64,000 bases of DNA from a virus (taxonomy: Duplodnaviria; Heunggongvirae; Uroviricota; Caudoviricetes): the IMG/VR virus record IMGVR_UViG_3300010396_000041; one strand, written 5' to 3'. Under the pieces are notes generated by a model. That model saw nothing but the letters and a program-made list of their open reading frames with translations. It did no database searches and was not told where the DNA came from. The stretch's first letter is position 1, and each line of letters begins with the position of its first letter. Below are positions 23,170 to 38,065 of the stretch, one piece after another. Made by a program: the position numbers and the translations under genes.

Positions 23170-23214
23170 GACGAAAGCCCGCCAGCACGGGGCCAGCGGG
23201 CTTTGGGAAGTTGA

Positions 23215-23634
23215 TCAGGCGCGCTCGGCAGCGACGAACTCCGCCAGGATGACCCGAATCTCCGCCACTGTCACCACCCCGCGCATGCGGCCGATCACCT
23301 GCTTGATCGCCGAGGCGGCGTCAACGAGGTCGCGCACCCTCGGCTTCTCGCCAAGGTCGTCGACCAGCTGACGCAGCCAGGCGAACTGACCCGGGCGGCC
23401 ACTGCCGGAGATCAGCATCAGGTCCTCGGCGAGGATCATCAGGCGGTGCTCGTAGGAGCCCTCCTCGACCTCGACCAGGTCCTTGGCGAAGACCAGGCTC
23501 TGGAAGTTGGGGCGCGAAAGCCAGAAGGAGAGGTAGATCCGGTCGTTTCCGTCGATGTCGTTGTAGCCGTGGGCGACCCGACCCCACTCGGTACCGTCGG
23601 TGCTGACCATCAGCTTGCCGGTCATCTCGTTCAT
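23215..23634 (-). CDS. hypothetical protein (139 aa)
   Basis: ORF 23215..23790 from M53. GAGAGGAG RBS. Confidence 0.55.
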   Translation of the reverse strand: MNEMTGKLMVSTDGTEWGRVAHGYNDIDGNDRIYLSFWLSRPNFQSLVFAKDLVEVEEGSYEHRLMILAEDLMLISGSGRPGQFAWLRQLVDDLGEKPRVRDLVDAASAIKQVIGRMRGVVTVAEIRVILAEFVAAERA

Positions 23635-23668
23635 GTTCTGCTCCTCTCGGGTGAGCGTCCTTCGCTCT

Positions 23669-23683
23669 GTGAGCAATGTAGCA
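23669..23683 (-). promoter_or_regulatory. conserved motif variant TGAGCAATGTAGCAC
   Basis: 34 nt upstream of ATG 23634. Confidence 0.5.
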
Positions 23684-23711
23684 CAACCGACCGGGGTGCG
23701 CACCGGTCCTG

Positions 23712-23735
23712 CGGTTGGCCAACTGGCCAAACCCA
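23712..23735 (-). terminator. palindromic hairpin GGTTTGGCCAGTTGGCCAACC
   Basis: Follows the stop at 23842. Related palindrome at 27268-27300. Confidence 0.45.
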
Positions 23736-23841
23736 GGACCGTCAGCGAAGCGCCAGGAGCGCCGCTCCCGCGCTGGCGACCCCTGGGCAAGGCAATGCCC
23801 CCCGGGCGGCTCCCGAGGGGCGGAGAAGCGCTCCTGAAGGC

Positions 23842-24408
23842 TTAGAGCGCCTTGATAGCGGCGATGGCCGCCCGCGCCTGCCGCGTACGCAGCGGTGCCA
23901 GAACCTTGCGGGCCGCGACCAGCTCGTCAGTCTCGACCAGGCCCGCCGCCTCCTTCAGCGCGTCCTGCGAAGCCTTGGTCAGCGCCTTCGCCGAGGCCTC
24001 CAGCAGCGTCTCGACGATCGCCTTGCGCGCCCACTGGCGGGGGAAGATCTCTTCGTCCTCGACCGCCGCGTCCTCAGCCTCGGTGATCGTCTTGGCGACC
24101 TCGGCGACCGCCTTGACCAGCTCGACCTCGACCAGCGAAACCTGCCCGGCGCCTTCGAGGTCAGCCAGCTGAGCGCGCAGGCCCATCAGCTCGTACTCGA
24201 CCTCGGCGAGCTCGGCGGTCAGCTCCTTGATCTTGTCGTCCCACCGCAGCTCGGCCTGCGAGGCGACCCGGTGGGCCTGACCCTTGGCCCAACGGCGCTT
24301 GTCGCGGGCCAGGCCCCGGCGCCCCTCGGCGTTCTCGATCTGCTCGGCCAGGCGGGCGGAGCGGGCGGTGAGGGTCTGGATCTTCTTGGCGATCTGCGTG
24401 GCGTTCAT
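23842..24408 (-). CDS. PLRTR-tail family paralog 1 (188 aa), coiled-coil N-terminus
   Basis: C-terminus AARKVLAPLRTRQARAAIAAIKAL. Confidence 0.6.
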   Translation of the reverse strand: MNATQIAKKIQTLTARSARLAEQIENAEGRRGLARDKRRWAKGQAHRVASQAELRWDDKIKELTAELAEVEYELMGLRAQLADLEGAGQVSLVEVELVKAVAEVAKTITEAEDAAVEDEEIFPRQWARKAIVETLLEASAKALTKASQDALKEAAGLVETDELVAARKVLAPLRTRQARAAIAAIKAL

Positions 24409-24447
24409 GGTTTCTGCCTCCGTCTCTGTCGCGCGTCCTTCGCGCTA

Positions 24448-24462
24448 TGAGTAATATAGCAT
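24448..24462 (-). promoter_or_regulatory. conserved motif TGAGTAATATAGCAT
   Basis: 39 nt upstream of ATG 24408. Confidence 0.55.
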
Positions 24463-24490
24463 AGCGGCGCCGGAGGTCGCACCTCCCTCT

Positions 24491-25021
24491 CTACAGCGCC
24501 CGGATCAGCGCAATCGCCTTCAGGGCCGCCTTCGTGCGCAGCGGAATCAGCACCCGCCGAGCCGCCTGCGCATCGCCGCCCTGAAGCTCCATCGCCGCGT
24601 CCAGCAGCGCCTCCCGGCTGGCCTCGGTGCGCGCCGAGCACGCAGCAGAGAACACGAAGAACCGGATCTCGTCGAGCTCGGGAGTCTCGATCACCTCGGC
24701 GGGGGCAGGCGCCTCGGTGTTCTCGATGCACTCGATCATGGAGATGTTCTCCAGCAGCGCCAGCTCCTCGCGCAGCGCGGCGATGTGGCTGGTCAGCTGG
24801 GCGATACGCACCGAGGGGCGGGAGGTCTTGCGCGCCGCCTGATAGCGCACCAGCGCCCGACCGGCGACCGCGATGTCGTGGTACAGGCCGTTGATGTTCG
24901 CCTGCTCGGCTGCGGCACGCTGGGCGTCGGTCATGCTCGCGGCGTTGCGCTCGGCGCAAGCGGTGATCGCCGCGTAGCCGGAGTGGCGCTTGCCGCAGGT
25001 CACGCAGTACATCGCGCTCAT
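24491..25021 (-). CDS. PLRTR-tail family paralog 2 (176 aa)
   Basis: ORF 24491..25096 from M26. C-terminus AARRVLIPLRTKAALKAIALIRAL. Confidence 0.6.
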   Translation of the reverse strand: MSAMYCVTCGKRHSGYAAITACAERNAASMTDAQRAAAEQANINGLYHDIAVAGRALVRYQAARKTSRPSVRIAQLTSHIAALREELALLENISMIECIENTEAPAPAEVIETPELDEIRFFVFSAACSARTEASREALLDAAMELQGGDAQAARRVLIPLRTKAALKAIALIRAL

Positions 25022-25056
25022 GATCTTCTCCCTTCCGGCGAGCGTGTTTCGCTCTG

Positions 25057-25071
25057 TGAGTAGCGTAGCAT
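25057..25071 (-). promoter_or_regulatory. conserved motif TGAGTAGCGTAGCAT
   Basis: 35 nt upstream of ATG 25021. Confidence 0.6.
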
Positions 25072-25136
25072 TGCCGCACCTGGGCTGGCACGACAAAGGC
25101 GCCCGCCTCTTTCGAGGGGGCGCCTTCGCGCGGGTC

Positions 25137-25586
25137 TTACAGGGCCTTGATCGCCGCGATGCCCGCCAGCGCCACCCGGGTGCGCAGCGGCACGAGCACC
25201 TTGCGCGCCTCCTCGGTCTTGCCTTCGAGCACCAGCGCCGCCGCCTTGGTCAGCGCGCTCATCGACTCGTGCGTCTTCGCGGCGTGGGCGCCCTTGTCCA
25301 GCTTCTCGGCGATCTCCGCCAGCGCCGGGTTCACCGGGGCCTCGACCTCGACCGGAGCCGCCTCGGCGCCTTCGATCTTGACTTCGACCACCAGCGCGAC
25401 CGGGCCGTACTCGTTCTTGCGCGAGGCCTGAGCGGCGGAGCCGTGGAAGGTGACCCCGTAGCCGCCCGACTGGTACGGGCCGCGCACGGCCGCGTGGGTG
25501 TAGGCGCGGTGGCTGGTGCGGGTGGAGCGGATCTCGGTGCCGTTGATGGTGGCTTCGGCGATGTAGGTGATCTTCTTGGCGGCCAT
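25137..25586 (-). CDS. PLRTR-tail family paralog 3 (149 aa)
   Basis: ORF 25137..25715 from M44. C-terminus EEARKVLVPLRTRVALAGIAAIKAL. Confidence 0.6.
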   Translation of the reverse strand: MAAKKITYIAEATINGTEIRSTRTSHRAYTHAAVRGPYQSGGYGVTFHGSAAQASRKNEYGPVALVVEVKIEGAEAAPVEVEAPVNPALAEIAEKLDKGAHAAKTHESMSALTKAAALVLEGKTEEARKVLVPLRTRVALAGIAAIKAL

Positions 25587-25626
25587 TGTGATCTTCTCCT
25601 TCTCTGCGGCGCGTCCCTCGCGCACA

Positions 25627-25641
25627 TGAGTAATGTAGCAT
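25627..25641 (-). promoter_or_regulatory. conserved motif TGAGTAATGTAGCAT
   Basis: 40 nt upstream of ATG 25586. Confidence 0.6.
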
Positions 25642-25773
25642 GGCTGCACCTGGGCGCGCACCCCCCTGGCCACAGCGACTTTCCGCCCCTCTCCCACCCT
25701 GGCGAGCCCAGGCATGCGCGAAGCCCTCGGGAAGCTCTCCCGAGGGCTCCTAGCGCGCGCTCCGCGCCTCCTG

Positions 25774-26082
25774 CTAGCGGCGGAAGGCGATGGCGCTCTC
25801 TTCGATGTGAGCGGTCTTGCCGCTGGGCAGCTTCACGAAGATCTGGATGCCGTTGAAGCCAGCGTTCGAGGTGGAGAGCACTTCGACCTCGGCGCCCGCC
25901 TCGACCCACTCGTCATCGACGACCTCGTTGTTGACGAAGTTGGTGAAGTAGGCCCGCTGCATCGTCACCAGGGTCTTGCCCTTGAACAGCGTCGAGAGAA
26001 TCCAGGCCGCGTCGTGCGGGATCTTGCGGTTCTGGGCGATCTTGGCGGTGTCGACCCGGCTCAGCGTGATCAGCTCGGACAT
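25774..26082 (-). CDS. hypothetical protein (102 aa)
   Basis: ORF 25774..26121 from M14. GAGAGGAG RBS. Confidence 0.55.
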   Translation of the reverse strand: MSELITLSRVDTAKIAQNRKIPHDAAWILSTLFKGKTLVTMQRAYFTNFVNNEVVDDEWVEAGAEVEVLSTSNAGFNGIQIFVKLPSGKTAHIEESAIAFRR

Positions 26083-26120
26083 CGTCTGCTCCTCTCGGTG
26101 GGCGCCCCCTTGGCGCCACA

Positions 26121-26135
26121 TGAGTAATGTAGCAT
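26121..26135 (-). promoter_or_regulatory. conserved motif TGAGTAATGTAGCAT
   Basis: 38 nt upstream of ATG 26082. Confidence 0.6.
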
Positions 26136-26154
26136 CATGGCGCCGGTGCTGGCA

Positions 26155-26466
26155 CTACCGCATGCAGAGGCAGGTTCCGCCAGCAGGACCGCAAGCAGGG
26201 GTATCGTGCGGCCATTCGATCTTCGGCCAGGGCATCGCCTTGACCACCCGCTCCAGCTCATCACGCACCGCCTGCGCACGCTCGTACGTCTCCCGCGCCG
26301 AGCGGGCATGATCTTCCGGGATCTCCAGCTGCTTCGGCGGCTGCTCGAAGAACAGCGCATCGCTGCACAGCCGCTCCACCCCGGTGCCCAGCGCGTAGCG
26401 CAGCGCCAGCAGTTGATCGGCACTCAGCCTCAGTAGGTAGTCGCCTTGGTTGTAGCTGATCTCCAT
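26155..26466 (-). CDS. hypothetical protein (103 aa)
   Basis: ORF 26155..26769 from M102. AAGGAG RBS. No motif; lies behind the hairpin at 26476-26510. Confidence 0.5.
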   Translation of the reverse strand: MEISYNQGDYLLRLSADQLLALRYALGTGVERLCSDALFFEQPPKQLEIPEDHARSARETYERAQAVRDELERVVKAMPWPKIEWPHDTPACGPAGGTCLCMR

Positions 26467-26475
26467 CGTGCTCCT

Positions 26476-26510
26476 TAAAAGCGAGAGGGGCGCCCCCCTT
26501 GCGGAGGGCG
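26476..26510 (-). terminator. twin palindrome GGGCGCCC..GGGCGCCC hairpin
   Basis: Follows the stop at 26523. Confidence 0.45.
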
Positions 26511-26522
26511 CCCTGTGAGGGT

Positions 26523-26720
26523 TTAGAGGATCATGAACTCGTCGTCGTCGACCAGGACGTTCAGGCGCCGGTCGGCGTAGGGCGAGTCCCACTTGACCTC
26601 GATGACCTTGAGTGCCGGGTGCCAGGCCCTGATGATGCCGGTGGCGCCGTCGGGGATCGGGTCGGAGTCGGTGGAGTGCAGGAGCTTGATCTTTTGGCCC
26701 TTGAGGTACTGCTCGGTCAT
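26523..26720 (-). CDS. hypothetical protein (65 aa)
   Basis: ORF track. GGAAAGGA RBS. Confidence 0.55.
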   Translation of the reverse strand: MTEQYLKGQKIKLLHSTDSDPIPDGATGIIRAWHPALKVIEVKWDSPYADRRLNVLVDDDEFMIL

Positions 26721-26754
26721 GGAGATCCTTTCCGTCGCGGGACCTTCCCGCTAC

Positions 26755-26769
26755 GGAGTAGCGTAGCAT
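26755..26769 (-). promoter_or_regulatory. conserved motif variant GGAGTAGCGTAGCAT
   Basis: 34 nt upstream of ATG 26720. Confidence 0.55.
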
Positions 26770-26814
26770 GACGAGAGGGGTCCGGCACGAGGCACGGACC
26801 CCTCTCTTTGCAGG

Positions 26815-27189
26815 TCAGCTGGAGTGACTGGCGATCTCTCGCGCCCGCCCCAGCACAGCCACCAGCGCGTTCGACAGGTTCATCCGGACCGAGGTGACGA
26901 TGGCGTCAGCCTGCATCGCGGTGCCGTAAGCCAGCAGGGCCGCGCCGAGCTCGTCGAGGTTGAACCCGTGACCCTCCCAGCTGCGCACCGTGCCGCGCAG
27001 CAGCTCCAGCGCCAGCTCGTACTGCTCGGCTTCAATGTTGCTCACGATGCCGTAGAAGTCGAGCGCCAGGGCTTCCAGGGTCCGCTTCACCGAGGTGTCG
27101 GCGACCCCCGGCTCGTCCGCCACCTGCTCCAGGTGCCAGGCGCACGCGTTGAGGTGGGCGCGGGCGACGGTGGCGGTCAGTCGGTTCAT
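26815..27189 (-). CDS. hypothetical protein (124 aa)
   Basis: ORF 26815..27240 from M18. GAAGGGAG RBS. Confidence 0.55.
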   Translation of the reverse strand: MNRLTATVARAHLNACAWHLEQVADEPGVADTSVKRTLEALALDFYGIVSNIEAEQYELALELLRGTVRSWEGHGFNLDELGAALLAYGTAMQADAIVTSVRMNLSNALVAVLGRAREIASHSS

Positions 27190-27225
27190 GTTCGCTCCCT
27201 TCGTGAGCCGGCCTCTCCGGCTACG

Positions 27226-27240
27226 TGAGTAGCGTAGCAT
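27226..27240 (-). promoter_or_regulatory. conserved motif TGAGTAGCGTAGCAT
   Basis: 37 nt upstream of ATG 27189. Confidence 0.6.
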
Positions 27241-27267
27241 GACGGCCCATCAGATGGCACTACAACG

Positions 27268-27300
27268 GAAAGACCCCGCAGTTGGCCAGTTGGCCAACTG
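27268..27300 (-). terminator. 15-bp perfect palindromic hairpin CCCCGCAGTTGGCCA GT TGGCCAACTGCGGGG
   Basis: Follows the stop at 27381. Confidence 0.55.
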
Positions 27301-27380
27301 CGGGGCCCTACCCGGGGTCGGCTGAAGGGAGGAGCAGCCCGACCCATCTACCGCCGAGACGTCTAACCGGCGGGAACCTA

Positions 27381-27728
27381 TCAGGGAGTTACCAGCCCAA
27401 GATCCACCACACTGAACCCACGCGGCCCAGCCTGCTGCATCTCCGTGCCTTCACTCACCCGAGCCTGATAATCAACCGCGTGCGCCCCAATCGAAAGCAA
27501 CTGCATGTAGATCAGCCCATACTCCGTCGGGGCCTTCACCACCTCCGTGCCATCGATCACGAACCGCACCCACGCGTCCTCACCCAGACCCAGCACATAG
27601 CCCTGGAGCTGAACGACAAACCCCAAGCCCGTGATGGTCAGCGGACCGCCCACCAGCGAAACCCAGGCATCGTCCGTGACCAGAGTGCTGGTCGTCGAAG
27701 CGAAGGCGACATCAGTCAGCAGCGCCAT
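27381..27728 (-). CDS. hypothetical protein (115 aa)
   Basis: ORF track. Coupled to the upstream gene (TGATCATG). Confidence 0.5.
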   Translation of the reverse strand: MALLTDVAFASTTSTLVTDDAWVSLVGGPLTITGLGFVVQLQGYVLGLGEDAWVRFVIDGTEVVKAPTEYGLIYMQLLSIGAHAVDYQARVSEGTEMQQAGPRGFSVVDLGLVTP

Positions 27729-27730
27729 GA

Positions 27731-29758
27731 TCAGATCCGCATACCGGGATCGCGCGAGTCACGCGGGTCGCGGTCGTAGTCATCGCCAGCGCGCGAGGAA
27801 GCAGCGTACGAACGCGCCCGGTTCCAGTTCACGGACCGGTTCGAGTCCTCGATCACGACGTTCACGTACTGGCGCGGGTCATCGCGGTCGCGCTCACGCC
27901 GCCCGCCACACCCGCAGGGGTCTTCCTTCTTGCAGCAGCACGCCAGCTGCAACTCCAGCGTGTCGATCTTGGTCTTCAGCTGCGTCTCGGTCGCCAGACC
28001 CCGCGCAAAGCGCCGCTCAGCGCCTTCCTCGTCGAGGTGCCGGATAAGGCTGCGGGTGCGGTCCTCATCGTCGCGGGAACGGCGCTCGAAGCCGCGCATC
28101 TCATCCAGGTTGCGGTCAGCCAGAGCACGCAGCAGGTCGTGCGTGCGGTCCTCGCGGTCCCGGAGGTAAAGACGCGTCTCCAGGTCCGTCTTGGTGTTGT
28201 GCTCCCGCGTGCGGTCACCCTGGTGCCGCACCTCGTCGCTGATGTGGATCAGCCGCTCCGAGGTACGCCGGTCGTGGTCACCCAGCGACTCGGACAGTTC
28301 CTCCAGGTTGTGGGTGACCTGCCGCTCAATCTGGTGCTCGATGCGGCGCTCAGAGTCATCCAGGTTCTTGGTGGAACGACGCTCGAACGCATCCAGGTTG
28401 TGCGTCTGACGCCGCTCGGCGTCGTCCGCGTTCTTGGTGAGCCGCAGCTCCTCCTGGTAGATGTCGCGTTCGATGTTGCGCTGGACCATGTCCAGGCGCT
28501 CCTGATCGCGCCGTTCTGCGTCACGCTGGTAGTTGCTCAGGCGCCGCTCAGCGTCACCAAGCTGTTCCTGCGTTTCCTCACCCACGTGCCGCACCACGCC
28601 GTCGATCCGGCGTTCGGTGTCACACAGGTCCTTCTCCAGCGCACCGAACGCCTCGGCGTTCTCCTCGCCGTAGTGGTCGACCTTGTCACCAAGGCGCCGC
28701 TCGGAGTTGGTGATGTGCTCTGCCAGCCGCTCGCGGCCGAAAGCACCTTCACGGCGGTCCTCGTCGATATCGCGTTCGATCCGGCGTTCCGCGTTGGCAA
28801 GGTGCTCGTTGGTGTGACCGAAGCCGTGTACCGACTCGCGGCGACCGCCATCGATGTTGCCATCCAGCCAGCGGGCGTTGGCGTCAGCACCTTCGTGCAG
28901 GTAACGGGTGTTCGCACCGTTCTGCTCCGCCAGGCGCCACGCGTTCGCGTCCTGACCCGAGTGCAGCCAGCGGGCGTTGGCATCCTGTCCGGTGTGCAGC
29001 CAGCGCGCGCTATCGCCGACCTCGTCTTCGACGTCGTCGATCTCACGGGAAAGGTAGCGGGTGTTGGCATCGACGTTCGCGTCAGTGCGACGCTGCCCGT
29101 CACCAAGCCAGCGGGCGCTCTCCTCGACGCGGTGATCGGTGCGGCGCTGGCCTTCGTGCAGCCAGCGGCCGTTGGCGTTGACGTCCTTCTCTACGTCATC
29201 GACTTCACGCGCCACCCACCAGGCGTTCTGGTTGACGTTTGCGTCGGTCTGGCGCTGGCCGTCGCCGAGCCAGCGGGCTTCACTGTCGGACTGGCGCGAA
29301 GCGCCGAGGAATCCGTGATCGACGTTGCGGTCGGTCGCGGCCTGGCCCTTGGCGGTGCCGTAGAAGCCTGCTGCGGTCTCGGCGCTCATCGCGCGGTGCT
29401 CGCCCGACAGGAACCGGCCGTTGGCATCGACGTTACGGTCGGTCGCCGCCTGGCCTGCGGCGGTGTTCTGGAAGCCTCGGTCGATCTCGTTGTCGAGGAA
29501 CAGCGCGTCGCGGTTGATCTCAGCAGACAGGTGCTGGGTGTTACGGTTCGCCTCGGCGTCGATGTAGCCGGTGCTGTCGGCGATGGCACGGTTGGTGTGC
29601 AGGAATTCGTTGTCGACGTTGCGGAAGCCAGCGTCGACGTTGTTGTCCGTGTGGCGCTGGCCTTCAAGAATCAGGGCAGTGTCATAGGAGGGTACGGGTA
29701 CGGGGATGGGCACCGGGTGGTTGTGGTGGTGCCAGGGGCCCGGCATGGAATCGCTCAC
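27731..29758 (-). CDS. large D/E/R/N-rich tandem-repeat protein (about 675 aa) with C-terminal Cys cluster CCCKKEDPCGCGG
   Basis: About 10 repeats of ..ARWL..GQRRTD.NVD.N.. then ERR/coiled-coil-like repeats. N-content argues against a GC-driven spurious frame. Antisense + ORF 28037..29836 is junk. Start GTG 29758 (GGAGG 8 nt upstream) or ATG 29746; the ORF track's TTG 29827 start is less likely. Confidence 0.6.
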   Translation of the reverse strand: MSDSMPGPWHHHNHPVPIPVPVPSYDTALILEGQRHTDNNVDAGFRNVDNEFLHTNRAIADSTGYIDAEANRNTQHLSAEINRDALFLDNEIDRGFQNTAAGQAATDRNVDANGRFLSGEHRAMSAETAAGFYGTAKGQAATDRNVDHGFLGASRQSDSEARWLGDGQRQTDANVNQNAWWVAREVDDVEKDVNANGRWLHEGQRRTDHRVEESARWLGDGQRRTDANVDANTRYLSREIDDVEDEVGDSARWLHTGQDANARWLHSGQDANAWRLAEQNGANTRYLHEGADANARWLDGNIDGGRRESVHGFGHTNEHLANAERRIERDIDEDRREGAFGRERLAEHITNSERRLGDKVDHYGEENAEAFGALEKDLCDTERRIDGVVRHVGEETQEQLGDAERRLSNYQRDAERRDQERLDMVQRNIERDIYQEELRLTKNADDAERRQTHNLDAFERRSTKNLDDSERRIEHQIERQVTHNLEELSESLGDHDRRTSERLIHISDEVRHQGDRTREHNTKTDLETRLYLRDREDRTHDLLRALADRNLDEMRGFERRSRDDEDRTRSLIRHLDEEGAERRFARGLATETQLKTKIDTLELQLACCCKKEDPCGCGGRRERDRDDPRQYVNVVIEDSNRSVNWNRARSYAASSRAGDDYDRDPRDSRDPGMRI

Positions 29759-29917
29759 GTGAGATGCCTCCGGAAAGAGATGTGCCGTGGCTCGGAGGTA
29801 GCCAGGCGCTGGCACATTATCACGCAAAGAATGTAACGATCTTGGGATTGAGTGAACCCTTCGTGGACAGCTTAGAACCCCAGCCCGAAGGCTGGGGTTG
29901 CGCAGGTCAGAGGCCTA

Positions 29918-30220
29918 TCACGACTCGTTGTTCAGCACCCTGCGATTGACCATCAGAACTGCCGCCGCGTTCCGCGCCAGCTCGAATATCCACTCGCTGG
30001 TGTCCTGCCGCGTGATCGATTCGAGGGTGGTGCGGGCCAGCTCCAGGTGCTCGCTGGCGGCGATTGGGGTGCGGGTGAGGTGCACGGCGGCCAGTCGGGT
30101 CTCCCCAGCTGCCTTGGTGAGCTTCACGGCGGTCTGATAGGAGACATCGTCGCGGGAAACGAGCTGGTCAAGGGAGGTAGCCCAGTGGCGCAGCTGGGTC
30201 GCGTCGCTGCCGAGGTTCAT
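29918..30220 (-). CDS. hypothetical protein (100 aa)
   Basis: ORF 29918..30424 from M69. GAAGGAG RBS lies inside the end of the upstream mini-gene. GC hairpin AACCCCAGCC..GGCTGGGGTT downstream. Confidence 0.55.
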   Translation of the reverse strand: MNLGSDATQLRHWATSLDQLVSRDDVSYQTAVKLTKAAGETRLAAVHLTRTPIAASEHLELARTTLESITRQDTSEWIFELARNAAAVLMVNRRVLNNES

Positions 30221-30222
30221 CT

Positions 30223-30369
30223 TTAGTTCTCCTTCACGCGCAGAACGTAAACGGTGACCGTTGCGACCGCGCCGAGGATCAGGGTGGGCATGGCGTAGCG
30301 CCACTCGACGAAGTCGGTCAGCGCGGTGCCGACGCCGTTGAAGACGTCGGAGAGCAGGCGGGTGATCAT
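30223..30369 (-). CDS. small membrane protein (48 aa)
   Basis: Manual: MITRLLSDVFNGVGTALTDFVEWRYAMPTLILGAVATVTVYVLRVKEN. Confidence 0.4.
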   Translation of the reverse strand: MITRLLSDVFNGVGTALTDFVEWRYAMPTLILGAVATVTVYVLRVKEN

Positions 30370-30409
30370 GGTTCACTCCTTTCGGTGGCTCGGGCGGTCC
30401 GAGCGGATA

Positions 30410-30424
30410 TGAGTAACGTAGCAC
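30410..30424 (-). promoter_or_regulatory. conserved motif TGAGTAACGTAGCAC
   Basis: 40 nt upstream of ATG 30369. Confidence 0.55.
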
Positions 30425-30605
30425 AGCGCCACGGGGGACGCACTATCAGCCCTACCTCGCCCCTTCCCGCCTCGGAGCGGGCTTCTGCGCCCCTCCCAGC
30501 CCGCCCCCTTGCCCCAGGGCTAGAGCCCTCTCGGGAGCGCGGGAGAGCGCCCCATGGCAGCGCGAAGGCCCCCGCCCGGGTGAGGGGCGGGGGCCTTCGG
30601 TCAGG

Positions 30606-30914
30606 CTAGTTCGAGTCCGGACGGTTCGCCTTGATCAGGTTCATCACCCAGCGCGGGACGTTCTCCATCTTCGAGTAGCGCCAGATGATCCGGTCGTTCG
30701 GACGAAGCTCGCCGCGCACGATGTGAGCACCGACGACGGAGACCGCAACCGGTGCCCAGTCACCCTTGTTCACCCGCGACCAGGTGGCCATGATCGTGTC
30801 GGCCTCCATCTTGGTCCGGCCCTGCTCCATCACCTTGTCGGGGTGATCGATGACTTCGATCTCCACCGAGCAGGCGTAGCTCTTGGTGATGGCGCCGACC
30901 TCGTAAGCCGTCAT
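30606..30914 (-). CDS. hypothetical protein (102 aa)
   Basis: ORF 30606..30992 from M27. GAGAGGAG RBS. Confidence 0.55.
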   Translation of the reverse strand: MTAYEVGAITKSYACSVEIEVIDHPDKVMEQGRTKMEADTIMATWSRVNKGDWAPVAVSVVGAHIVRGELRPNDRIIWRYSKMENVPRWVMNLIKANRPDSN

Positions 30915-30953
30915 GTGCTGCTCCTCTCCGCTGCCCGGCGCTTCCGGGCTACG

Positions 30954-30968
30954 TGAGTAGCGTAGCAT
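30954..30968 (-). promoter_or_regulatory. conserved motif TGAGTAGCGTAGCAT
   Basis: 40 nt upstream of ATG 30914. Confidence 0.6.
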
Positions 30969-30988
30969 TGCTGCACGCTCGGTGGCAC

Positions 30989-31129
30989 TCACGGCTTCTT
31001 TTCCCGCTCCGCCTGCTCCCGAGCCTCCTCCTCCGCCAGCCTCCGCCGACCCTCCTCGGCAACCCGCACCGCCTCAGCAATCTGCCGCGCAGTCTCACGC
31101 GAGTACTCCGCATCGCTCTGCTCGCCCAC
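30989..31129 (-). CDS. possible small E/R-rich protein (46 aa)
   Basis: Manual. GTG start with GGAGGTG RBS. Low-complexity. Confidence 0.3.
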   Translation of the reverse strand: MGEQSDAEYSRETARQIAEAVRVAEEGRRRLAEEEAREQAEREKKP

Positions 31130-31131
31130 GA

Positions 31132-31464
31132 CTACACCTCCGAATTCAGCAGCTGAGCACGGCTCGCCGCCTCCAGCCGCGCCTTAAGCACCTGGTCTTC
31201 CCAATCCTCAGCGCCATCCGGGACGCTCGCCACCACCACCCGGCCCAGCACCTCACCCTCGTCCGTCACCCGCTGCACCACAATCAGCATCGCCTGACGC
31301 GTCGAGATATCAGCCACCTGCCACTGCGCCGACCGCTTGACCTCCGCACGCTTCACCGCCTCCACCCGCGTCTGGCCACGCACGGCCCGGCCGATGACAA
31401 GGATCGTCACGGCCAGGCCGACGCACAGCAGCCCGATGGACATGGCTGCCAAAACTACATCCAT
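31132..31464 (-). CDS. membrane-anchored protein (110 aa)
   Basis: ORF track. N-terminal TM helix. Confidence 0.5.
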   Translation of the reverse strand: MDVVLAAMSIGLLCVGLAVTILVIGRAVRGQTRVEAVKRAEVKRSAQWQVADISTRQAMLIVVQRVTDEGEVLGRVVVASVPDGAEDWEDQVLKARLEAASRAQLLNSEV

Positions 31465-32456
31465 TACTTCGCGCCCACCGCGAGACCAGCACCCGGCGCA
31501 TACGTCGTGATACCCGGCGGCAGCGCCTGCTCCTCAGCGATCACCCCGCACACCGGGCACGCGCTGTAGCCCTGCTGAGTGATCTCGTTCGCCTGTGCCG
31601 TGAGCTTCGCAGCGTTCACCTTCGCCTGCGCCGTGGAGACCTGAGCGAACGCGGCCTGAGCCGAGTCGATCGCCGACTGGACCCCACCAGGCAGCGTCAC
31701 CGTCGAGATCGTGAACCGCAGACCCGTCAGGTAGTTACCGCCGAGCTGGGACTTCAAGTCGCTCGCCAGCTCGGTGTTGATCGTGTTCTGGATGTTCGCC
31801 AGATTCCCGTTGCTCGACGCGCTCGCCACCGCCGCCACCGACGTGTTCGTCGCGTTCTTCACCAGCGCACACGCAGGGTCCACGTCAGCGCAGCTGACCG
31901 CGCTCATCGCGGTGCGCAGCTCGTTCTGGAGCGTCGGGCGAACCACCGCGTTGATGAACGCGTTCCAGCCGTCGCTCCCGTCGTACGGGTGCAGCGCCTT
32001 CCCATCCCACACGTAGGTCTGGGTACCGTACGAGTCATCGAACGTACCGAGCACATCGTGCTTGAGGTTCAGCGAGTAGTACAACGTTCCCTGGATCGTG
32101 ATCTCCACCCCGTCGCTCGACGGGACGTTGATCGAGTCGGAGGAGTTCGTCTGCCCCTGCTTCGGGTCAGCGCTGATCGTGTACACCTGCTGCTGCGCCG
32201 GGTAGATGTGCTCCGTGCTGTAAAGCCCGGTGTAGGTCATTCCGGCGCCCGGGTCCAAGAACCCCCGGACGTTCTGGTTGGCGAAGCCGCCGTTGCGCAG
32301 CACCGCGATGTGCCCGCCGTCGATCGAGTCGAGCGACCCGACCGCCGCGAAGCAGACCGACAGGCCCACGATCAGTCCGGTGGCGCCGAGGACCGATCCC
32401 ACGCCCCACCGAGCCACACGGCCCGGGGTCCACTCCTTGTCATAGCTCATGGTCAA
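31464..32456 (-). CDS. membrane-anchored/exported hypothetical protein (330 aa)
   Basis: ORF track. N-terminal TM helix; S/T/N/Q-rich body. Confidence 0.6.
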   Translation of the reverse strand: MTMSYDKEWTPGRVARWGVGSVLGATGLIVGLSVCFAAVGSLDSIDGGHIAVLRNGGFANQNVRGFLDPGAGMTYTGLYSTEHIYPAQQQVYTISADPKQGQTNSSDSINVPSSDGVEITIQGTLYYSLNLKHDVLGTFDDSYGTQTYVWDGKALHPYDGSDGWNAFINAVVRPTLQNELRTAMSAVSCADVDPACALVKNATNTSVAAVASASSNGNLANIQNTINTELASDLKSQLGGNYLTGLRFTISTVTLPGGVQSAIDSAQAAFAQVSTAQAKVNAAKLTAQANEITQQGYSACPVCGVIAEEQALPPGITTYAPGAGLAVGAK

Positions 32457-32515
32457 TCCTTGATAGATGGTTGATAGGAGAAGGGCGGGCCCCCGAAGGA
32501 ACCCGCCCGTGGTGC

Positions 32516-34129
32516 CTAGAACGGCCAGGTGCCGTTACGACCCGCCTCCAGCAGCGGAATCAGGCGGAACGCCTGGTCCGTCAGCCCGCCGAAGGTGTGC
32601 CGGTTCTCACTGCCCGACGGAGCGTGCCCGTAGCGGTAGCCCGCCAGGTTCCAGGTGTAGACCGGCACCGTCTTCGGGACCGCTGCCGTCACATCCCAGG
32701 CGCCGTGGTAATCCGCCTGCTCGTCCGTCAGGATGATCACCCGGTCGTGTGCCTTGTAGTGCGTCGAGACCGCCTGCTGCGTCGAGGTACCACCCAGGTC
32801 GGTGAACCGGTCGATCAGCTTGAGCACCGAGTCGCCCGTGCGGAAACGCACCTCATGCGAGGAGGAGCCGAACTGAACGAGGTCAGCCTTCTCCGCGCGC
32901 AGCGCCAGCGCCGTACCGAACAAGGCTGCCGAGTCGGCGCGGTTCAACTGCGTCTTCTCGGAGATCCCGCCGAACATCGATCCGGAGCGGTCTACCAGCA
33001 CCAGAGTGCGGCCCGGCAAGCTCGGGACGTTCTCCAGCGACATGTTCAGCGCCTGCTCCAGCGGCCACGCCCAGCGCAGCCCGGAGTGCTTGTACGCGGC
33101 GAGGAACCGGAACGGGAACTGGCGCGACTTGCGGACCTCGTCGAGGTTGGCGATCCGCGCGGCGACCGCGTTCGCGGCGCCTTCGCTGATCTTCTTCTCG
33201 TCGAAGTTACGCAGGTTCCTGATCAAGGCCATATAGCCCATGGTCGGGATCTGCTTCTCCCAGGTGGCGCCGTCCATCGCGCCCTGCTTCCACCCGGCCG
33301 TCGCCTCCCAGGTCATGCCAGCCTTCGCCAGCTGCTCCGAAGCGTCGTCCGAGGCGAGCAGAGCCGCCTTCTCCTCGGCGTCGAGGGACGTCAGCTCCTT
33401 ACGGGCGGTGATGGTCTTGAGCCGTGCCGACGCCGGGTTCTCCGGGTCCTCACGGTCGTGACGGCGGTCGATCGCGTGCTCGAACAGGTCACCCTGCCAG
33501 GCCTTACCGACCGCCGGGCCCGGGTGCACCAGCTCCAGCACATCGCCCATACGCACCGCGTCGCCCTTGCTGTCGTACTTGAGCAGGCTGCGCTCGTTGT
33601 ACAGGCGCCGGGTCGCGTCGCCGAGACCGCGCTTGACCGGCTTCGGCATGGCCTTGCCGTACTTCGAGATCCAGTACGCCAGCAGCTCGGCAGGCTCGTC
33701 GGCGCGCTGGCAGGCAGCGTCGATCGCGCGGCGGTTGAAGCCGCGCACCTCGAAGACGGTGCCGACTCCCTCGCCGTCCTCGACCACCTTCGCGTCGATA
33801 CGGGCCTTCACCAGCTCGGCGGCCATGACCAGAGAAGCCGAGCGCATGTTGGCCTCGTTGCGCAGCCACGGGATCATCCGGACCAGCCAGTCCGGGTCCT
33901 CCAGCGCCACCTGGTGCACCAGCTGCTCGAAACGCGCGTCGCGCTGGTCGGCGCGCTCGTAGTAGGTGTTCTCGCCCACCATGTTGGTCACCGCGAGCAG
34001 GAACAGCTCAGACTTCGCGTCGCGGGCGAAGCCGGGGGCGCCGTTGAAGGTACGGCCGGTCGGGGTCTTCGCGGTCTTCACCGGGGAAGTGGTACGCGGC
34101 TTGGCGGTGGCGGTGTTGAACTTCGACAT
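32516..34129 (-). CDS. rsr: Ro60/Rsr ortholog (TROVE domain + C-terminal vWA/MIDAS), about 537 aa
   Basis: MSKFNT...TNMVGENTYYE TROVE-type N-terminus. C-terminal LVLVDRSGSM MIDAS. ATG 34129 with GAGGGGAG RBS; alternative GTG 34165. Confidence 0.85.
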   Translation of the reverse strand: MSKFNTATAKPRTTSPVKTAKTPTGRTFNGAPGFARDAKSELFLLAVTNMVGENTYYERADQRDARFEQLVHQVALEDPDWLVRMIPWLRNEANMRSASLVMAAELVKARIDAKVVEDGEGVGTVFEVRGFNRRAIDAACQRADEPAELLAYWISKYGKAMPKPVKRGLGDATRRLYNERSLLKYDSKGDAVRMGDVLELVHPGPAVGKAWQGDLFEHAIDRRHDREDPENPASARLKTITARKELTSLDAEEKAALLASDDASEQLAKAGMTWEATAGWKQGAMDGATWEKQIPTMGYMALIRNLRNFDEKKISEGAANAVAARIANLDEVRKSRQFPFRFLAAYKHSGLRWAWPLEQALNMSLENVPSLPGRTLVLVDRSGSMFGGISEKTQLNRADSAALFGTALALRAEKADLVQFGSSSHEVRFRTGDSVLKLIDRFTDLGGTSTQQAVSTHYKAHDRVIILTDEQADYHGAWDVTAAVPKTVPVYTWNLAGYRYGHAPSGSENRHTFGGLTDQAFRLIPLLEAGRNGTWPF

Positions 34130-34171
34130 GGTGGTGCTCCCCTCTTTCTGGGTGGCAGAGGGCACACGAAA

Positions 34172-34313
34172 GGGTGATGCCCGAGATCAAATCGTCGACT
34201 GTGTTAGCGCTCTACCGTTGAGCTATACGGCCCGAAGGCCATAACCGGATTCGAACCAGCAACCTCTTCATTACAAGTGAAGTAACAGTCAACATACGCA
34301 CCGGGCATCACCC
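34172..34313 (-). ncRNA. Y-RNA-like unit A with tRNA-like module (T-arm, loop-closed acceptor GGCCATA-TTCG-GGCCGTATA, D-arm)
   Basis: Termini GGGTGATGCCCGG/TCGGGCATCACCC pair (13 bp). Shares the GAAGTAAC...CGCACCGGG and GAGATCAAATCG blocks with units B-F. Confidence 0.5.
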
Positions 34314-34323
34314 TGACGTGGTC

Positions 34324-34447
34324 CCTCCCGAGATCAATTCGACGACGGTTTTAGAGTTCTGCGCTCAGTTGCGCGGAACGGGATTCGAACCCGAAGCCCC
34401 CGAAGGAGCTGTTCACCAGAAGTAACCGTCATCTGCGCACCGGGAGG
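34324..34447 (-). ncRNA. Y-RNA-like unit B with tRNA-like T-arm GGGTTCGAATCCCG
   Basis: Termini CCTCCCG/CGGGAGG plus GAUGACGG/CCGUCGUC pair around an internal loop. Confidence 0.5.
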
Positions 34448-34470
34448 TGCAAGTCTGTGGGTGCTGCGGT

Positions 34471-34569
34471 GGGAGGTCCCGCCTGAGATCAAATCGGCTG
34501 GGGTGTCTTGTTTTTGAATTGCGATCAATTGAAGTAACCCCGTCCTGCGCACCAGGCAGGACCTCCCAC
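34471..34569 (-). ncRNA. Y-RNA-like unit C (short, no tRNA-like module)
   Basis: Termini GGGAGGTCC/GGGACCTCCC pair. Same conserved end blocks. Confidence 0.4.
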
Positions 34570-34582
34570 TTTTCCGCGACGG

Positions 34583-34726
34583 GGCGTCCCCGAGATCAAA
34601 TCGGCGACGGGCTTTTTTACTAATGCTCTACCAGCTGAGCTATCCGGCGGCGAGCCGCCGGACTAGGACTCGAACCTAGGACCCTTAGTGCCTCATGAAG
34701 TATCCGTCGCCTGCGCACCGGGAACT
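34583..34726 (-). ncRNA. Y-RNA-like unit D with tRNA-like module (T-arm CCTAGGTTCGAGTCCTAG, loop-closed stem TCCGGCGGC-TCG-CCGCCGGA, D-arm TAGCTCAGCTGGTAGAGC)
   Basis: Manual folding. Confidence 0.45.
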
Positions 34727-34744
34727 CCCTATCAGCGGAATGAG

Positions 34745-34893
34745 GTCTCGCCAGAGATCAAATCGGGGAAGGAGACGTAGCGTGCTATCCATTACACTAC
34801 CCCTGCTTGTTCTGGTGCAGGGGGCGGGAATCGAACCCACTCTGCCGGTTCCGTAGACCGAAGTAGCCTTCTCCTACGCACCTGGCGAACCTC
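34745..34893 (-). ncRNA. Y-RNA-like unit E with tRNA-like module (GGGTTCGATTCCC T-arm, loop-closed CCCCTGC...GCAGGGG, D-arm-like TAGTGTAATGGATAGCAC)
   Basis: Manual folding. Confidence 0.45.
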
Positions 34894-34914
34894 ATATGCA
34901 GTTATCAAGAATCA

Positions 34915-34995
34915 GCCTGGCCAGAGATCATCATGGCTCTGGTGTTGGTTTCTTTAGCGAAGAAGTAACCAGTGCCTTCGCACCTAGCCAGGCAA
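34915..34995 (-). ncRNA. Y-RNA-like unit F (short)
   Basis: Variant end blocks GAGATCATCATGG and GAAGTAACCAGTGCCTTCGCACCTAGCCAGG. Confidence 0.35.
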
Positions 34996-34999
34996 GCTA

Positions 35000-35040
35000 G
35001 CGAGGCGGGGGGCGGAGCGCTTCGGGGTTGCCCCCCGCTC
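35000..35040 (-). other. GC hairpin GCGGGGGGC...GCCCCCCGC between the motif copy and the Y-RNA array (5' leader structure)
   Basis: Seen directly. Confidence 0.35.
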
Positions 35041-35050
35041 CCTGCCTCTG

Positions 35051-35065
35051 AAAGTAGCGTAGCAC
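35051..35065 (-). promoter_or_regulatory. conserved motif variant AAAGTAGCGTAGCAC heading the Y-RNA array/rsr unit
   Basis: Only copy followed by noncoding RNAs rather than an RBS. Confidence 0.5.
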
Positions 35066-35195
35066 AGCGCCAGAGCGCCCCGCCAATCGCTTTAGCGCCT
35101 ACCCCGCACGCCCCGCGTCCCGAGCGCTCTAAGCCCCCTCTCCGAGGCTCCCAGCGCCCTTCTCCCGCCCTGCCGCGCCCCGGGCATAGCGAGAG

Positions 35196-35216
35196 CCCAC
35201 GGGCGCGACCCGTGGA
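35196..35216 (-). terminator. hairpin CCACGGGCGCGACCCGTGG
   Basis: Follows the stop at 35237. Confidence 0.4.
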
Positions 35217-35236
35217 CTCTCAGAGCTCGATTGTAC

Positions 35237-35515
35237 TTACAGCTGGTTGGGCAGGCGCCCTATCGCCTCTAGCCGAGCCAGCGCCAGGCGCGAAGCGCGG
35301 GTGCGCAGCGGCCCCAGGAACTCCCGCGCCCGGTCCAGATTCTCGTTCGCCTCGATGGTCTTGCCCACCTTGATCCAGTCGGCTGCCGAATTCAGGTACA
35401 GATGGCAGACCCACAGGGTCACCTTCGCGCGTTCTCGCCTGGCCGAGCTGGAGGCGGTGGCGAGTTCTTCGCTCGCCCCCTCCAGCTCGATCAGCGTGGT
35501 CTGACGGCGGGTCAC
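35237..35515 (-). CDS. PLRTR-tail family divergent member (92 aa)
   Basis: C-terminus REFLGPLRTRASRLALARLEAIGRL. ATGA-coupled to the upstream paralog. Confidence 0.5.
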   Translation of the reverse strand: MTRRQTTLIELEGASEELATASSSARRERAKVTLWVCHLYLNSAADWIKVGKTIEANENLDRAREFLGPLRTRASRLALARLEAIGRLPNQL

Positions 35516-36069
35516 AGCAGACCCAGCGTCTTGATGTCCTTGATCGCCTTGGTGCTCACGCGGGTGCGCAGGGGACTGAGGATCTTGTGGGCGACGTGCA
35601 GGCGGACGTTCGCGTCGCCGTTGACCCCGCGCAGCAGGAACCCGCGCGCCAAGCGCACCTCGTGGGCGGCGCTGGCCAGCTGCGACTCGGCCTCGTAGGT
35701 GCGGGCGCGCTTCGAGCCGTCCATGAGCGCGAGGAACATCTGATCCAGCTTCTCCATCGCCGCCGCCTTCAGCGCGCTCGGCTGGTGCTCGGCGATGGCT
35801 TCCAGCGCCTCGGTCACCTGCCCGTCGGGCACCTCCTGCGGGTAGAAGCAGTTGAAGACCTGGTCCCAGTCGGCGAGCTCCAGCGTCGAGGTGCGCAGGT
35901 TGGACTTGTCGCGCAGGTACTGCTTCGCGTTGATCTCGAACGCGGCGCGCTCGGTGCCCATGTGCTCGAAGGCACGGCCGTAGCGGGAGCTGCGGTCGGC
36001 GCCTCCGTCGGGCCAGAAGTCCATGTCGAGGTTGCGGATCACCGCGCGGGTGGCGCCCTTGTTCGCCAT
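35512..36069 (-). CDS. PLRTR-tail family paralog 5 (185 aa)
   Basis: ORF 35512..36147 from M27. C-terminus HKILSPLRTRVSTKAIKDIKTLGLL. AAAGGAGA RBS. Confidence 0.6.
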   Translation of the reverse strand: MANKGATRAVIRNLDMDFWPDGGADRSSRYGRAFEHMGTERAAFEINAKQYLRDKSNLRTSTLELADWDQVFNCFYPQEVPDGQVTEALEAIAEHQPSALKAAAMEKLDQMFLALMDGSKRARTYEAESQLASAAHEVRLARGFLLRGVNGDANVRLHVAHKILSPLRTRVSTKAIKDIKTLGLL

Positions 36070-36106
36070 GATCGTCTCCTTTCTGTGGGCTGGTCTCTCC
36101 AGCCTA

Positions 36107-36121
36107 TGAGTAACGTAGCAG
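36107..36121 (-). promoter_or_regulatory. conserved motif TGAGTAACGTAGCAG
   Basis: 38 nt upstream of ATG 36069. Confidence 0.55.
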
Positions 36122-36210
36122 AGCGCGCGGGAGGTGGCACCATTCACTTCGCCGCCCCCTCAAAGTGAATGAGCCCGCCCCCGTGCTGGGGGCGGGCTCG
36201 GCGACCTGTC

Positions 36211-36708
36211 TTACAGGGCCTTGATCATGTGAATCGCCTTCAGGGCGACCCGGGTGCGGATCGGGTAGAGCGTCTTGCGCGCGTCGTCGAGCTGGCCCGC
36301 CTTCAGCTGCCCGGCCGCCTTGGTCAGCACCGTCTTGGACACGTCGGTCTTCGCGGTCTGCACCCCGCCGAGCACGAACTGGATGATCTCGGCGACCGCC
36401 GAGGGCACTTCGGGCTTCGCGGCCTTGCGGATGCGCTTGGCCGGAGCCTTGGGCGCCTCGACGACCGGCTCGGCCGGGGTCTCGGCGACCCTCGCCTGCG
36501 CCTTGGCCTCGTTCTTCGCGCACATCTGGCAGAAGCGACCGCCCTTGGCCATCAGCCGCTCGACCTCGGCGGGGGTGATGTGCTTGCCGCTGACGTCGCC
36601 GTAGCCCCGAGAGACCATGGAACGCGAGGCGGTGGGGCAGTAGGTCGTGTGGACGGTGCCGGTGCCGGTGAGGATGGCGTACTCGTTGTTCTGGCCGTCG
36701 ATCATCAT
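36211..36708 (-). CDS. PLRTR-tail family paralog 6 (165 aa)
   Basis: ORF 36211..36807 from M34. C-terminus DARKTLYPIRTRVALKAIHMIKAL. AGGAGGAAG RBS. Confidence 0.6.
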   Translation of the reverse strand: MMIDGQNNEYAILTGTGTVHTTYCPTASRSMVSRGYGDVSGKHITPAEVERLMAKGGRFCQMCAKNEAKAQARVAETPAEPVVEAPKAPAKRIRKAAKPEVPSAVAEIIQFVLGGVQTAKTDVSKTVLTKAAGQLKAGQLDDARKTLYPIRTRVALKAIHMIKAL

Positions 36709-36748
36709 CTGAATCTTCCTCCTGTTCGGGGCCCGTCTCTCGGGCACA

Positions 36749-36763
36749 TGAGTAATGTAGCAC
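36749..36763 (-). promoter_or_regulatory. conserved motif TGAGTAATGTAGCAC
   Basis: 41 nt upstream of ATG 36708. Confidence 0.55.
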
Positions 36764-36806
36764 AGCCGCAAGAGATGCCGCACCCCCATCTTGAACAGGG
36801 GAAACA

Positions 36807-37196
36807 CTACTTCGTGCGCTCCGGGCGGTCAGGATCAATCGAGACAGTCAGCCACACCCCGTGCAGCTCGAACGCCCTTAACTGGGCAAACATCGCCAGC
36901 TTGAACGCGTCCTCATACGAGTAGCACAGCAGGTGAAGGTCATCGCCCCACGGGACCACCACATTCACCATGTAGTCCTCCCGCAGCACCTTCGGCTCCT
37001 TCGGCGCCGGAAAGAAGATCGAGCCCATCGCCAGCAGCGTGCAGTACCCGCCCAGTGCAGCGATCACCACTGAAACCCGGGTGCCGCCATCCCACGCCGT
37101 GCCCCAAGCCCAGTAAGCGCCAGCGCCGCACAAGCCAGTGACGAACCCCATATAGCCATACGCCTGCCAGGGGCGTCGCCAGGCTGGGTACTTCAT
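36807..37196 (-). CDS. membrane protein (129 aa)
   Basis: ORF 36807..37445 from M84. AAAGGAGG RBS. W/G-rich TM helices. Confidence 0.5.
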   Translation of the reverse strand: MKYPAWRRPWQAYGYMGFVTGLCGAGAYWAWGTAWDGGTRVSVVIAALGGYCTLLAMGSIFFPAPKEPKVLREDYMVNVVVPWGDDLHLLCYSYEDAFKLAMFAQLRAFELHGVWLTVSIDPDRPERTK

Positions 37197-37287
37197 GATC
37201 AAACCTCCTTTCCGTTCCGGACCTTCCGGACTAGGCGGGCGCCGCCCCCCGGGGGGAAAGGGGGCGGTTCCCACCTGGCCCGTTCTG

Positions 37288-37638: not shown

Positions 37639-37643
37639 GGCGA

Positions 37644-38027: not shown

Positions 38028-38065
38028 GGTGCCTCCCTCGCTGTTTGCCCGGACCGTCCGGACTA

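Follow-up and report, generated by a model that had tools for sequence, protein, structure and literature searches.

A conserved C-terminal domain joined to interchangeable heads in accessory proteins of soil actinophages

A 64,000-nucleotide stretch of DNA from an uncultivated tailed phage (IMG/VR record IMGVR_UViG_3300010396_000041; the whole stretch is called the window here) encodes six small proteins, A to F, that end in a common tail domain of ~62 residues. The tail is strongly supported as an autonomous module carried on unrelated, interchangeable N-terminal bodies (heads). A first-pass annotation of the window had proposed that such bodies share a C-terminal module, and we found that the same tail type is joined to different heads in related phages, that head-less tails exist, and that the linker between head and tail is predicted with low confidence. 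Judged by its sequence, the tail is a new family, confined to a small clade of ~107-kb soil actinophages.

Six genes with a common tail

All six open reading frames (ORFs) are located where the first-pass annotation had placed them. They lie on the minus strand, in two groups ~10 kb apart. In the list below, E is the E-value with a tail hidden Markov model (HMM) and GC3 the GC content of third codon positions.

23842-24408, minus: member A, 188 amino acids (aa), coiled-coil-like head and A-type tail (23845-24030); E 3.8e-26, GC3 0.92
24491-25021, minus: member B, 176 aa, head with C-x2-C-x3-H-x8-C and a helical stretch, B-type tail (24494-24679); E 3.2e-28
25137-25586, minus: member C, 149 aa, head Y (KKITY..TRTSHRAYTHAA..), Ala/Pro/Glu linker and C-type tail (25140-25325); E 5.8e-28
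35237-35515, minus: member F, 92 aa, essentially a head-less tail with an insertion (tail 35240-35488); E 6.7e-19
35512-36069, minus: member D, 185 aa, head D1 and D-type tail (35515-35751); E 1.1e-25
36211-36708, minus: member E, 165 aa, head X (H-x3-C ... C-x2-C), basic Ala/Pro/Lys linker and E-type tail (36214-36399); E 2.2e-32

The C-termini of the six proteins align with nine invariant columns (A..L..AA...A...L.P.RT), which bears out the common module, but its size had been underestimated at ~40 aa: it spans ~62 aa with four predicted helices. The D and F tails are longer, with 14-16 aa inserted between helices 2 and 3, and are slightly extended at the C-terminus (by GLL in D). When a six-frame translation of the window (all stop-to-stop ORFs) was searched with an HMM built from the six tails, these six only were retrieved, with E-values from 2.2e-32 to 6.7e-19, and the best non-member ORF reached E 1.1. 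A richer HMM of 26 tail sequences picks the same six ORFs. The pattern P[LIVM]RT[RK] is found in the six family ORFs and in one spurious ORF opposite tRNA genes.

Long spurious ORFs are numerous in high-GC genomes and the tails are 68-80% similar in DNA, so that the likeness might be an artefact, made of frame-shifted gene fragments, a DNA repeat read as protein, or chance in GC-rich sequence. We consider this next to impossible. GC3 is 0.85-0.96 in the six named frames, which in a 65% GC genome marks them as true coding frames; synonymous codons differ among members at conserved tail residues; and E-values with the HMM are very low. A separate start, stop, ribosome-binding site (RBS) and promoter-like motif are present in five of the six genes, and F has its own start and stop, overlapping D. 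Moreover, the gene boundaries recur in orthologues from related phages, which represent six or more metagenomic phage genotypes. The coding signature in GC3 together with these orthologues excludes, in particular, that the genes are pieces of a single frame-shifted gene.

The first-pass annotation had also assigned a motif copy and an RBS to each gene. This is so for A, B, C, D and E; F has neither, and begins with a GTG that shares bases with the TGA stop codon of D (GTGA, 35512-35515).

24448-24461, minus: promoter-like motif TGCTATATTACTCA upstream of A; a GC hairpin and a GGAG RBS come after it
25057-25070, minus: promoter-like motif upstream of B
25627-25640, minus: promoter-like motif upstream of C
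36107-36120, minus: promoter-like motif upstream of D, serving D and F
36171-36199, minus: terminator-like 12-bp GC-rich hairpin between the E stop and the D promoter motif
36749-36762, minus: promoter-like motif upstream of E

Hairpins comparable in strength to that downstream of E also follow A, C and F. The window contains 24 copies of the motif, TGCTAYRYTACTCA, where 0.01 would be expected, for example at 9551, 14563, 52647/52707 and 58075 and at 14 sites within 23155-38724. Its form is that of an extended -10 element (TGn-TAnnnT) with a GTGCC/GTGCG element ~17-19 nt upstream, and most copies are followed by a GC hairpin (stem of 5-6 bp, purine-rich loop of 5 nt) and then a GGAG RBS. Tail-family genes and their non-structural neighbours use the same motif, and from their sequence context the copies read as making many small genes separate transcription units. 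A scan for canonical sigma-70 promoters (E. coli consensus) returned zero in either gene cluster, and the phage motif therefore differs from that consensus.

Exchange of heads between phages

Long stretches could be compared among three phages: the window, L002 (Logan SRR30003475), and L001 together with L070 (JGI 3300062627, 107-kb contig). There are five to six tail copies per genome, with approximately six types in the two ~107-kb contigs (the window; L001 and L070) and five in the 23-kb L002. The first-pass annotation had called for tail conservation to be set against N-terminal diversity across related phages, and this comparison shows the tails to be syntenic orthologues with heads that are swapped, replaced or missing. 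Between phages, tail identity is 81-94% for the E type, 84% for C, 69-71% for B, 65-73% for A, 56% for F and 47-51% for D.

Heads and tails are recombined in several ways. The head of window member C (KKITY..TRTSHRAYTHAA) is joined to an E-type tail in L002, L070 and L067, and to another tail in L074 (P0014). Reciprocally, the Cys/His head of window member E is joined in L002 (10001-10423) to a C-type tail that is 84% identical to that of window C. A-type tails carry the coiled coil in the window and a different head of ~100 aa in L002 and L074. L070 has a third head on this tail type, and P0013, the tail found at the equivalent place in L069, is entirely head-less. The D-type tail is preceded by a head of 106 aa in the window and L070 and by one of 299 aa in L002 (a 378-aa protein), and the member at the D position in L067 (P0021) is almost head-less. 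Orthologues of the F type are found at L070 2595-2864 and as P0020, and P0004 joins F, P0013 and P0021 as a head-less tail. The B orthologues of L002, L070, L074 and L075, by comparison, retain both head and tail. Gene order is C-B-A in the window versus B-C-A in L002 and L074; F is missing from L002 and C from L070.

The exchange is seen most sharply at the E locus. Between the window and L070 the DNA is 92% identical over the promoter and 5' untranslated region (L070 1240-1329) and 94% identical over linker and tail (L070 1611-1888), with no match across the head. As the aligned sequences have it, this is a clean cassette replacement between promoter/5' untranslated region and linker plus tail.

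Two heads belong to widespread phage families that lack the tail, phrog_5855 (E 1.6e-39; Mycobacterium phage Muddy gp37 is an example of a homologue) and phrog_30881 (E 3.5e-11), the latter matched by the 299-aa head of the L002 D orthologue. The tblastn matches of these two heads in other phages cover the head only. The remaining heads are orphans: five concatenated heads and one L070 head gave no significant tblastn match among phages, and a word-indexed search with head Y was empty.

Predicted fold and conservation of the tail

AlphaFold2, run on a 70-residue tail construct with a nine-sequence alignment, predicted a compact bundle with a mean predicted local distance difference test score (pLDDT) of 89.5 and a predicted template modelling score (pTM) of 0.74. 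Helices are predicted at residues 8-23, 27-41, 45-52 and 58-69 of the construct, and the model has four antiparallel helices with nearest-neighbour connections, which places it in the up-down four-helix bundle class, an assignment of fold class only. The module that had been suggested to be a single docking or targeting helix is thus C-terminal and shared as proposed, and is predicted to be a 62-aa four-helix bundle instead. In the model of full-length E the head has pLDDT 65-78, linker residues 76-102 ~50 and the tail bundle ~90, with pTM 0.39, values that would mean two independent domains joined by a low-confidence linker.

Conservation was counted over 26 non-identical tails in a 62-residue numbering. 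L25, L44, P46 and T49 are invariant; position 50 is Arg or Lys in all 26, T18 is kept in 25, and [RK]17 and R48 are each kept in 24. The other conserved positions are small or hydrophobic core residues. Of the two polar motifs, A-[RK]-T forms the start of helix 2 and P-L-R-T-[RK] that of helix 4. In the predicted topology the N-termini of helices 2 and 4 would share one pole of the bundle, and at the opposite pole would lie the C-terminus, the N-terminal end to which the head is joined, and the loop between helices 2 and 3, in which D, F and P0021 have their insertion. Net charge over the last 23 residues of the tail is +4 to +6 throughout the family, and the tail ahead of these residues is neutral or acidic in most of the proteins.

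Outside the conserved motifs the tail changes readily. The ratio of nonsynonymous to synonymous substitution rates (dN/dS) is 0.4-0.75 for orthologous tails and ~1 for D, and among paralogous tails the proportions of nonsynonymous (pN 0.35-0.46) and synonymous differences (pS 0.29-0.48) are about equal, although strong codon bias in the GC-rich genome depresses dS and inflates the dN/dS ratios. The picture these values suggest is of a tolerant scaffold with few fixed positions and little constraint beyond the motif.

Relatives and distribution of the tail

Pfam, PHROG, PDB sequences and Foldseek are all without a match to the tail. Pfam-A contains no match below E 0.027, the weaker ones falling in heads or being coiled-coil noise, and PHROGs contains no match to the tail below E 0.003. 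Among PDB sequences there was no meaningful match to the tail; the best, to the tetratricopeptide repeats (TPRs) of BepA, reached E 0.025 with a six-sequence profile. A TPR or similar helical-hairpin repeat was rejected, as the BepA match falls to E 1.7 with a 17-sequence profile and helix 3 has only 8 residues. Foldseek found nothing at E <= 0.001 in PDB or BFVD, and the likeness to MMP1188 (2qzg), UPF0147 (2qsb) and a plant pectin methylesterase inhibitor (1xg2_B) is a fold-level resemblance only, at 11-13% identity.

A profile search of 1.84 billion cluster representatives returned 21 proteins at E <= 0.001, of which 19 are true members. The other two, P0022 (with the tail-fibre repeat 'KYMTPLKTKQAINAL') and P0023 (a WD40 protein with repeated 'ARKVLIPLR'), are weak profile matches to a short motif and were judged non-members. 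A word-indexed search of 5.8 billion clusters gave five to seven tail matches, and altogether ~26 non-identical tail copies were gathered from collections totalling ~15 billion predicted proteins. All members come from soil or forest metagenomes, and they represent at least six phage genotypes with a common promoter motif and synteny. The soil runs of the clade are SRR30003475, SRR14194039, SRR29078205, SRR33949183, ERZ1758401/3, and JGI 3300025906 and 3300062627. An identical copy of member F is present on JGI metagenome contigs of ~106.5 kb.

Among GenBank phages, tblastn with member C found no tail and megablast with the region gave zero matches. Pattern-seeded scans of IMG/VR and of GTDB species genomes with single tails, whose reach is close relatives only, found no tail. 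In the JGI metagenome contigs a single-tail scan and the exact DNA pattern of the E tail were both empty, and that collection seems to be without the source contigs. A literature search on the motif PLRTR turned up irrelevant papers only.

The DNA pattern for L-x-P-L-R-T-R hit 60 loci in IMG/VR, none of them with the module; most belong to an unrelated major-capsid family containing '..DKVLVPLRTRL..'. This major-capsid-like family (~290 aa; L012, L015, L017, L020, L023, L030, L034, L037, L039, L042 and L043) contains '..(D)AYDKVLVPLRTRL..', in which nine residues are identical to the tail of member C. Aligned to the tail with hhalign, the family gives a probability of 29% over 18 columns, and the likeness is probably a short-motif coincidence selected by the search pattern. 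The capsid gene of the window phage itself lies outside the window.

A candidate docking domain

In our preferred reading, to which we give a little less than an even chance, the tail serves for docking to a single partner common to all members, probably an anionic one. In such modular accessory proteins a flexible Ala/Pro-rich linker would join the variable head to the constant domain of ~62 aa, and the tail would tie the head to the same partner whichever head is carried. The candidate binding site is the pole at which helices 2 and 4 begin, with A-[RK]-T and with P-L-R-T-[RK] and its invariant Pro. We place it there because the sole polar residues conserved across all tail types sit at that pole, and because the pole faces away from the head attachment and the insertion-tolerant loop. 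A phosphate-bearing or acidic partner appears likely since a pair of helix N-termini lying side by side, with Thr caps and Arg/Lys, is typical of such sites; the most likely candidates would be a nucleic acid, a nucleotide-like molecule or an acidic surface of a host or phage protein. Head-less copies are conserved at no fewer than three positions, so that the tail is probably of value alone, and heads would add variable functions at its location. Features reminiscent of nucleic-acid binding occur in several heads (Cys/His knuckles, a possible winged helix, an AKP-rich linker), which is suggestive only.

Several points weigh against a docking role. The position assigned to the conserved pole follows from the order of the helices and the topology of the bundle, not from coordinates; conservation of Thr and Pro where helices start may reflect folding alone, as N-caps and helix breaker; and overall constraint is weak (dN/dS 0.4-1.0 between orthologous tails). 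The basic last helix would equally fit self-association, membrane contact or DNA packing in the capsid. Co-occurrence, for its part, cannot point to a partner because all members come from one narrow clade.

Self-association is the basis of an alternative that we think unlikely, in which the tail is a self-assembly domain and the approximately six types form a homo- or hetero-oligomeric hub displaying several heads at once. The two ~107-kb contigs each conserve about six tail types, L002 has five, and the genes share near-identical promoter motifs and RBSs. D and F are adjacent, with the same insertion and extension and with overlapping stop and start codons, head-less tails could act as plain subunits, and Ala-rich amphipathic helices pack well. 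However, the AlphaFold2 model is a closed monomeric bundle of high confidence, and copy number and gene order differ by phage (L002 is without F, L070 without C, and B and C change order). The residues conserved in all types are loop Arg/Lys, Thr and Pro, with no extra hydrophobic face, and it is because these loop residues are basic or Thr that a shared ligand is favoured over pure self-association.

Virion loading is an alternative that we hold to be very unlikely. Here the tail would bind scaffold, coat interior or packaged DNA, and the heads would be packed into the capsid and injected. A variable body on a constant basic, helical C-terminal module would suit this role, as would the fast-evolving, swappable bodies, which are expected of injected anti-defence proteins, and there are analogies in well-known phages. 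The internal proteins of T4 (IPI, IPII, IPIII and Alt) have an N-terminal capsid-targeting sequence of ~10 residues that is unfolded and is removed by the prohead protease. As in the present family, small, fast-diverging and otherwise unrelated phage proteins share one short module that takes them to one place. The module described here differs in being C-terminal, 62 aa long and predicted to fold as a bundle, and it has no sequence relation to the T4 signal; with the shared module at the C-terminus and six unrelated N-termini, these are not proteins with a T4-type capsid-targeting sequence. The scaffolding protein of P22 has a basic C-terminal helix-turn-helix whose positive residues contact the coat, and fusions to it load foreign proteins into capsids. 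This coat-binding domain is C-terminal, basic and helical like the tail, but has two helices versus four, and homology to the helix-turn-helix of P22 gp8 was rejected at an hhalign probability of 0.2%.

The genomic evidence also speaks against virion loading. The tail-family genes lie outside the structural module, among non-structural accessory genes (Ro/TROVE, SPFH and a Y-RNA-like array) with which they share the promoter motif, and no copy of that motif lies ahead of either the portal or the 877-aa gene on the minus strand. No structural protein of the ~107-kb contigs bears the tail. The conserved head-less tails, moreover, would be tags without cargo, and these tails and the shared promoter motif are mild arguments against a pure packaging tag.

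A wider proposal, improbable in our estimation but less so than virion loading, is that the phage clade keeps about six pre-wired "sockets" that take in arbitrary small ORFs, allowing plug-and-play evolution of host-takeover or anti-defence effectors. In each socket a conserved promoter, 5' hairpin and RBS would stand ahead of the captured ORF and the linker and four-helix tail behind it, and a captured domain would be expressed at once and tethered to one phage-specific hub. Candidate hubs would be a nucleic acid or ribonucleoprotein, such as the neighbouring Ro/Y-RNA-like particle, the host nucleoid or RNA polymerase. Functions other than those set out above take up the remaining probability.

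Comparison with known systems

A constant module on variable, recombining bodies is a known principle, found in polymorphic toxins, scaffold-directed cargo and T4 internal proteins, a precedent reviewed together with their targeting sequence in PMC3012670. Polymorphic toxins and effectors (LXG, Rhs, MuF-fused) resemble the present family in pairing a constant domain with cassettes swapped through recombination at domain boundaries. Their constant part, however, is N-terminal and tied to a secretion or packaging machine, and their variable parts are toxins with immunity genes, whereas here the constant part is C-terminal and the proteins measure 90-190 aa in the window. Pfam-A searches of the family proteins found no toxin or immunity signature. 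The host-takeover and early modules of large lytic phages such as SPO1 and T4 contain many small genes, each with its own strong promoter. The runs of small genes described here, each behind a near-identical promoter-like motif and a strong RBS, are similar to these modules, which unlike them are not built on one shared protein domain. What is new here is the domain itself, which has no counterpart in the libraries searched. Its C-terminal placement and size of 62 aa as a predicted folded unit, its six-fold paralogy and its socket-like gene organisation match none of the systems compared.

The tail thus defines a new protein domain with a confident predicted fold and a small, sharply conserved candidate functional site, and the E locus, with its flanks of 92-94% identity around an unrelated head, is an unusually clean natural case of domain-cassette exchange in phage accessory genes. 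If the tail does dock to one partner, identifying it would show where a dozen orphan phage domains act; some of these, phrog_5855 and phrog_30881, are found widely among actinophages. A further use of the tail could be as a ready-made tethering tag in Actinobacteria.

Genomic setting

The window has a GC content of 63-68% and is part of a large tailed actinophage. It encodes a T4-type large terminase, an SPFH/Band-7 protein and a Ro/TROVE protein with ~50% identity to its counterparts in Streptomyces phages BRock and LuckySocke; a synteny check of LuckySocke showed no comparable family around Ro. Other features of the window are listed below.

2598-6884 and 6895-9528, minus: gene pair for the portal protein (1428 aa; Phage_portal match at residues 141-519 only) and an 877-aa protein
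12127-16864, minus: three clusters of tRNA genes, 24 genes in all, one of which (14600-14677) has an odd anticodon call
27731-29827, minus: 698-aa protein with many charged repeats (..RWL..GQ..DAN(V/A)..) and a Cys cluster, CCCKKEDPCGCGG, at its end
34166-35236, minus: ORF-free 1.07 kb between member F and Ro/TROVE, with about six Y-RNA-like (YrlA-type, tRNA-like module) repeats
39425-40222: RlaP-type nucleotidyltransferase
47211-48944: GTP cyclohydrolase I and QueC
60314-61321: YqaJ-type recombinase

At 1428 aa the portal protein is unusually long. The 877-aa protein that precedes it has no Pfam match, and the pair is also present in L001. The 698-aa repeat protein likewise has no match in Pfam. 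GTP cyclohydrolase I and QueC probably represent a 7-deazaguanine pathway with a role in DNA modification.

The Y-RNA-like array has its own promoter motif, TGTGCTACGCTACTT. Rfam YrlA matches lie at 34598-34710 (46.6 bits, E 5.5e-9), 34206-34267 and 34782-34840, all under the gathering score of 69. Equivalent arrays are found at L002 2143-3254 and L070 2865-3970, with 87% column identity over the three phages.

Related phages encode a protein of the Acb2/Tad1-hairpin family, which comprises anti-CBASS/Thoeris sponges, and an Rv2179c-like exoribonuclease, both placed between the tail family and the terminase gene.

L002 14767-15021 and 15552-16124: Acb2/Tad1-hairpin protein and Rv2179c-like exoribonuclease
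L070 16046-16303 and 16836-17402: the same pair
L069 2450-2698 and 3680-4267: the same pair

With these two genes nearby, the region surrounding the tail family is therefore of an accessory, anti-defence type.

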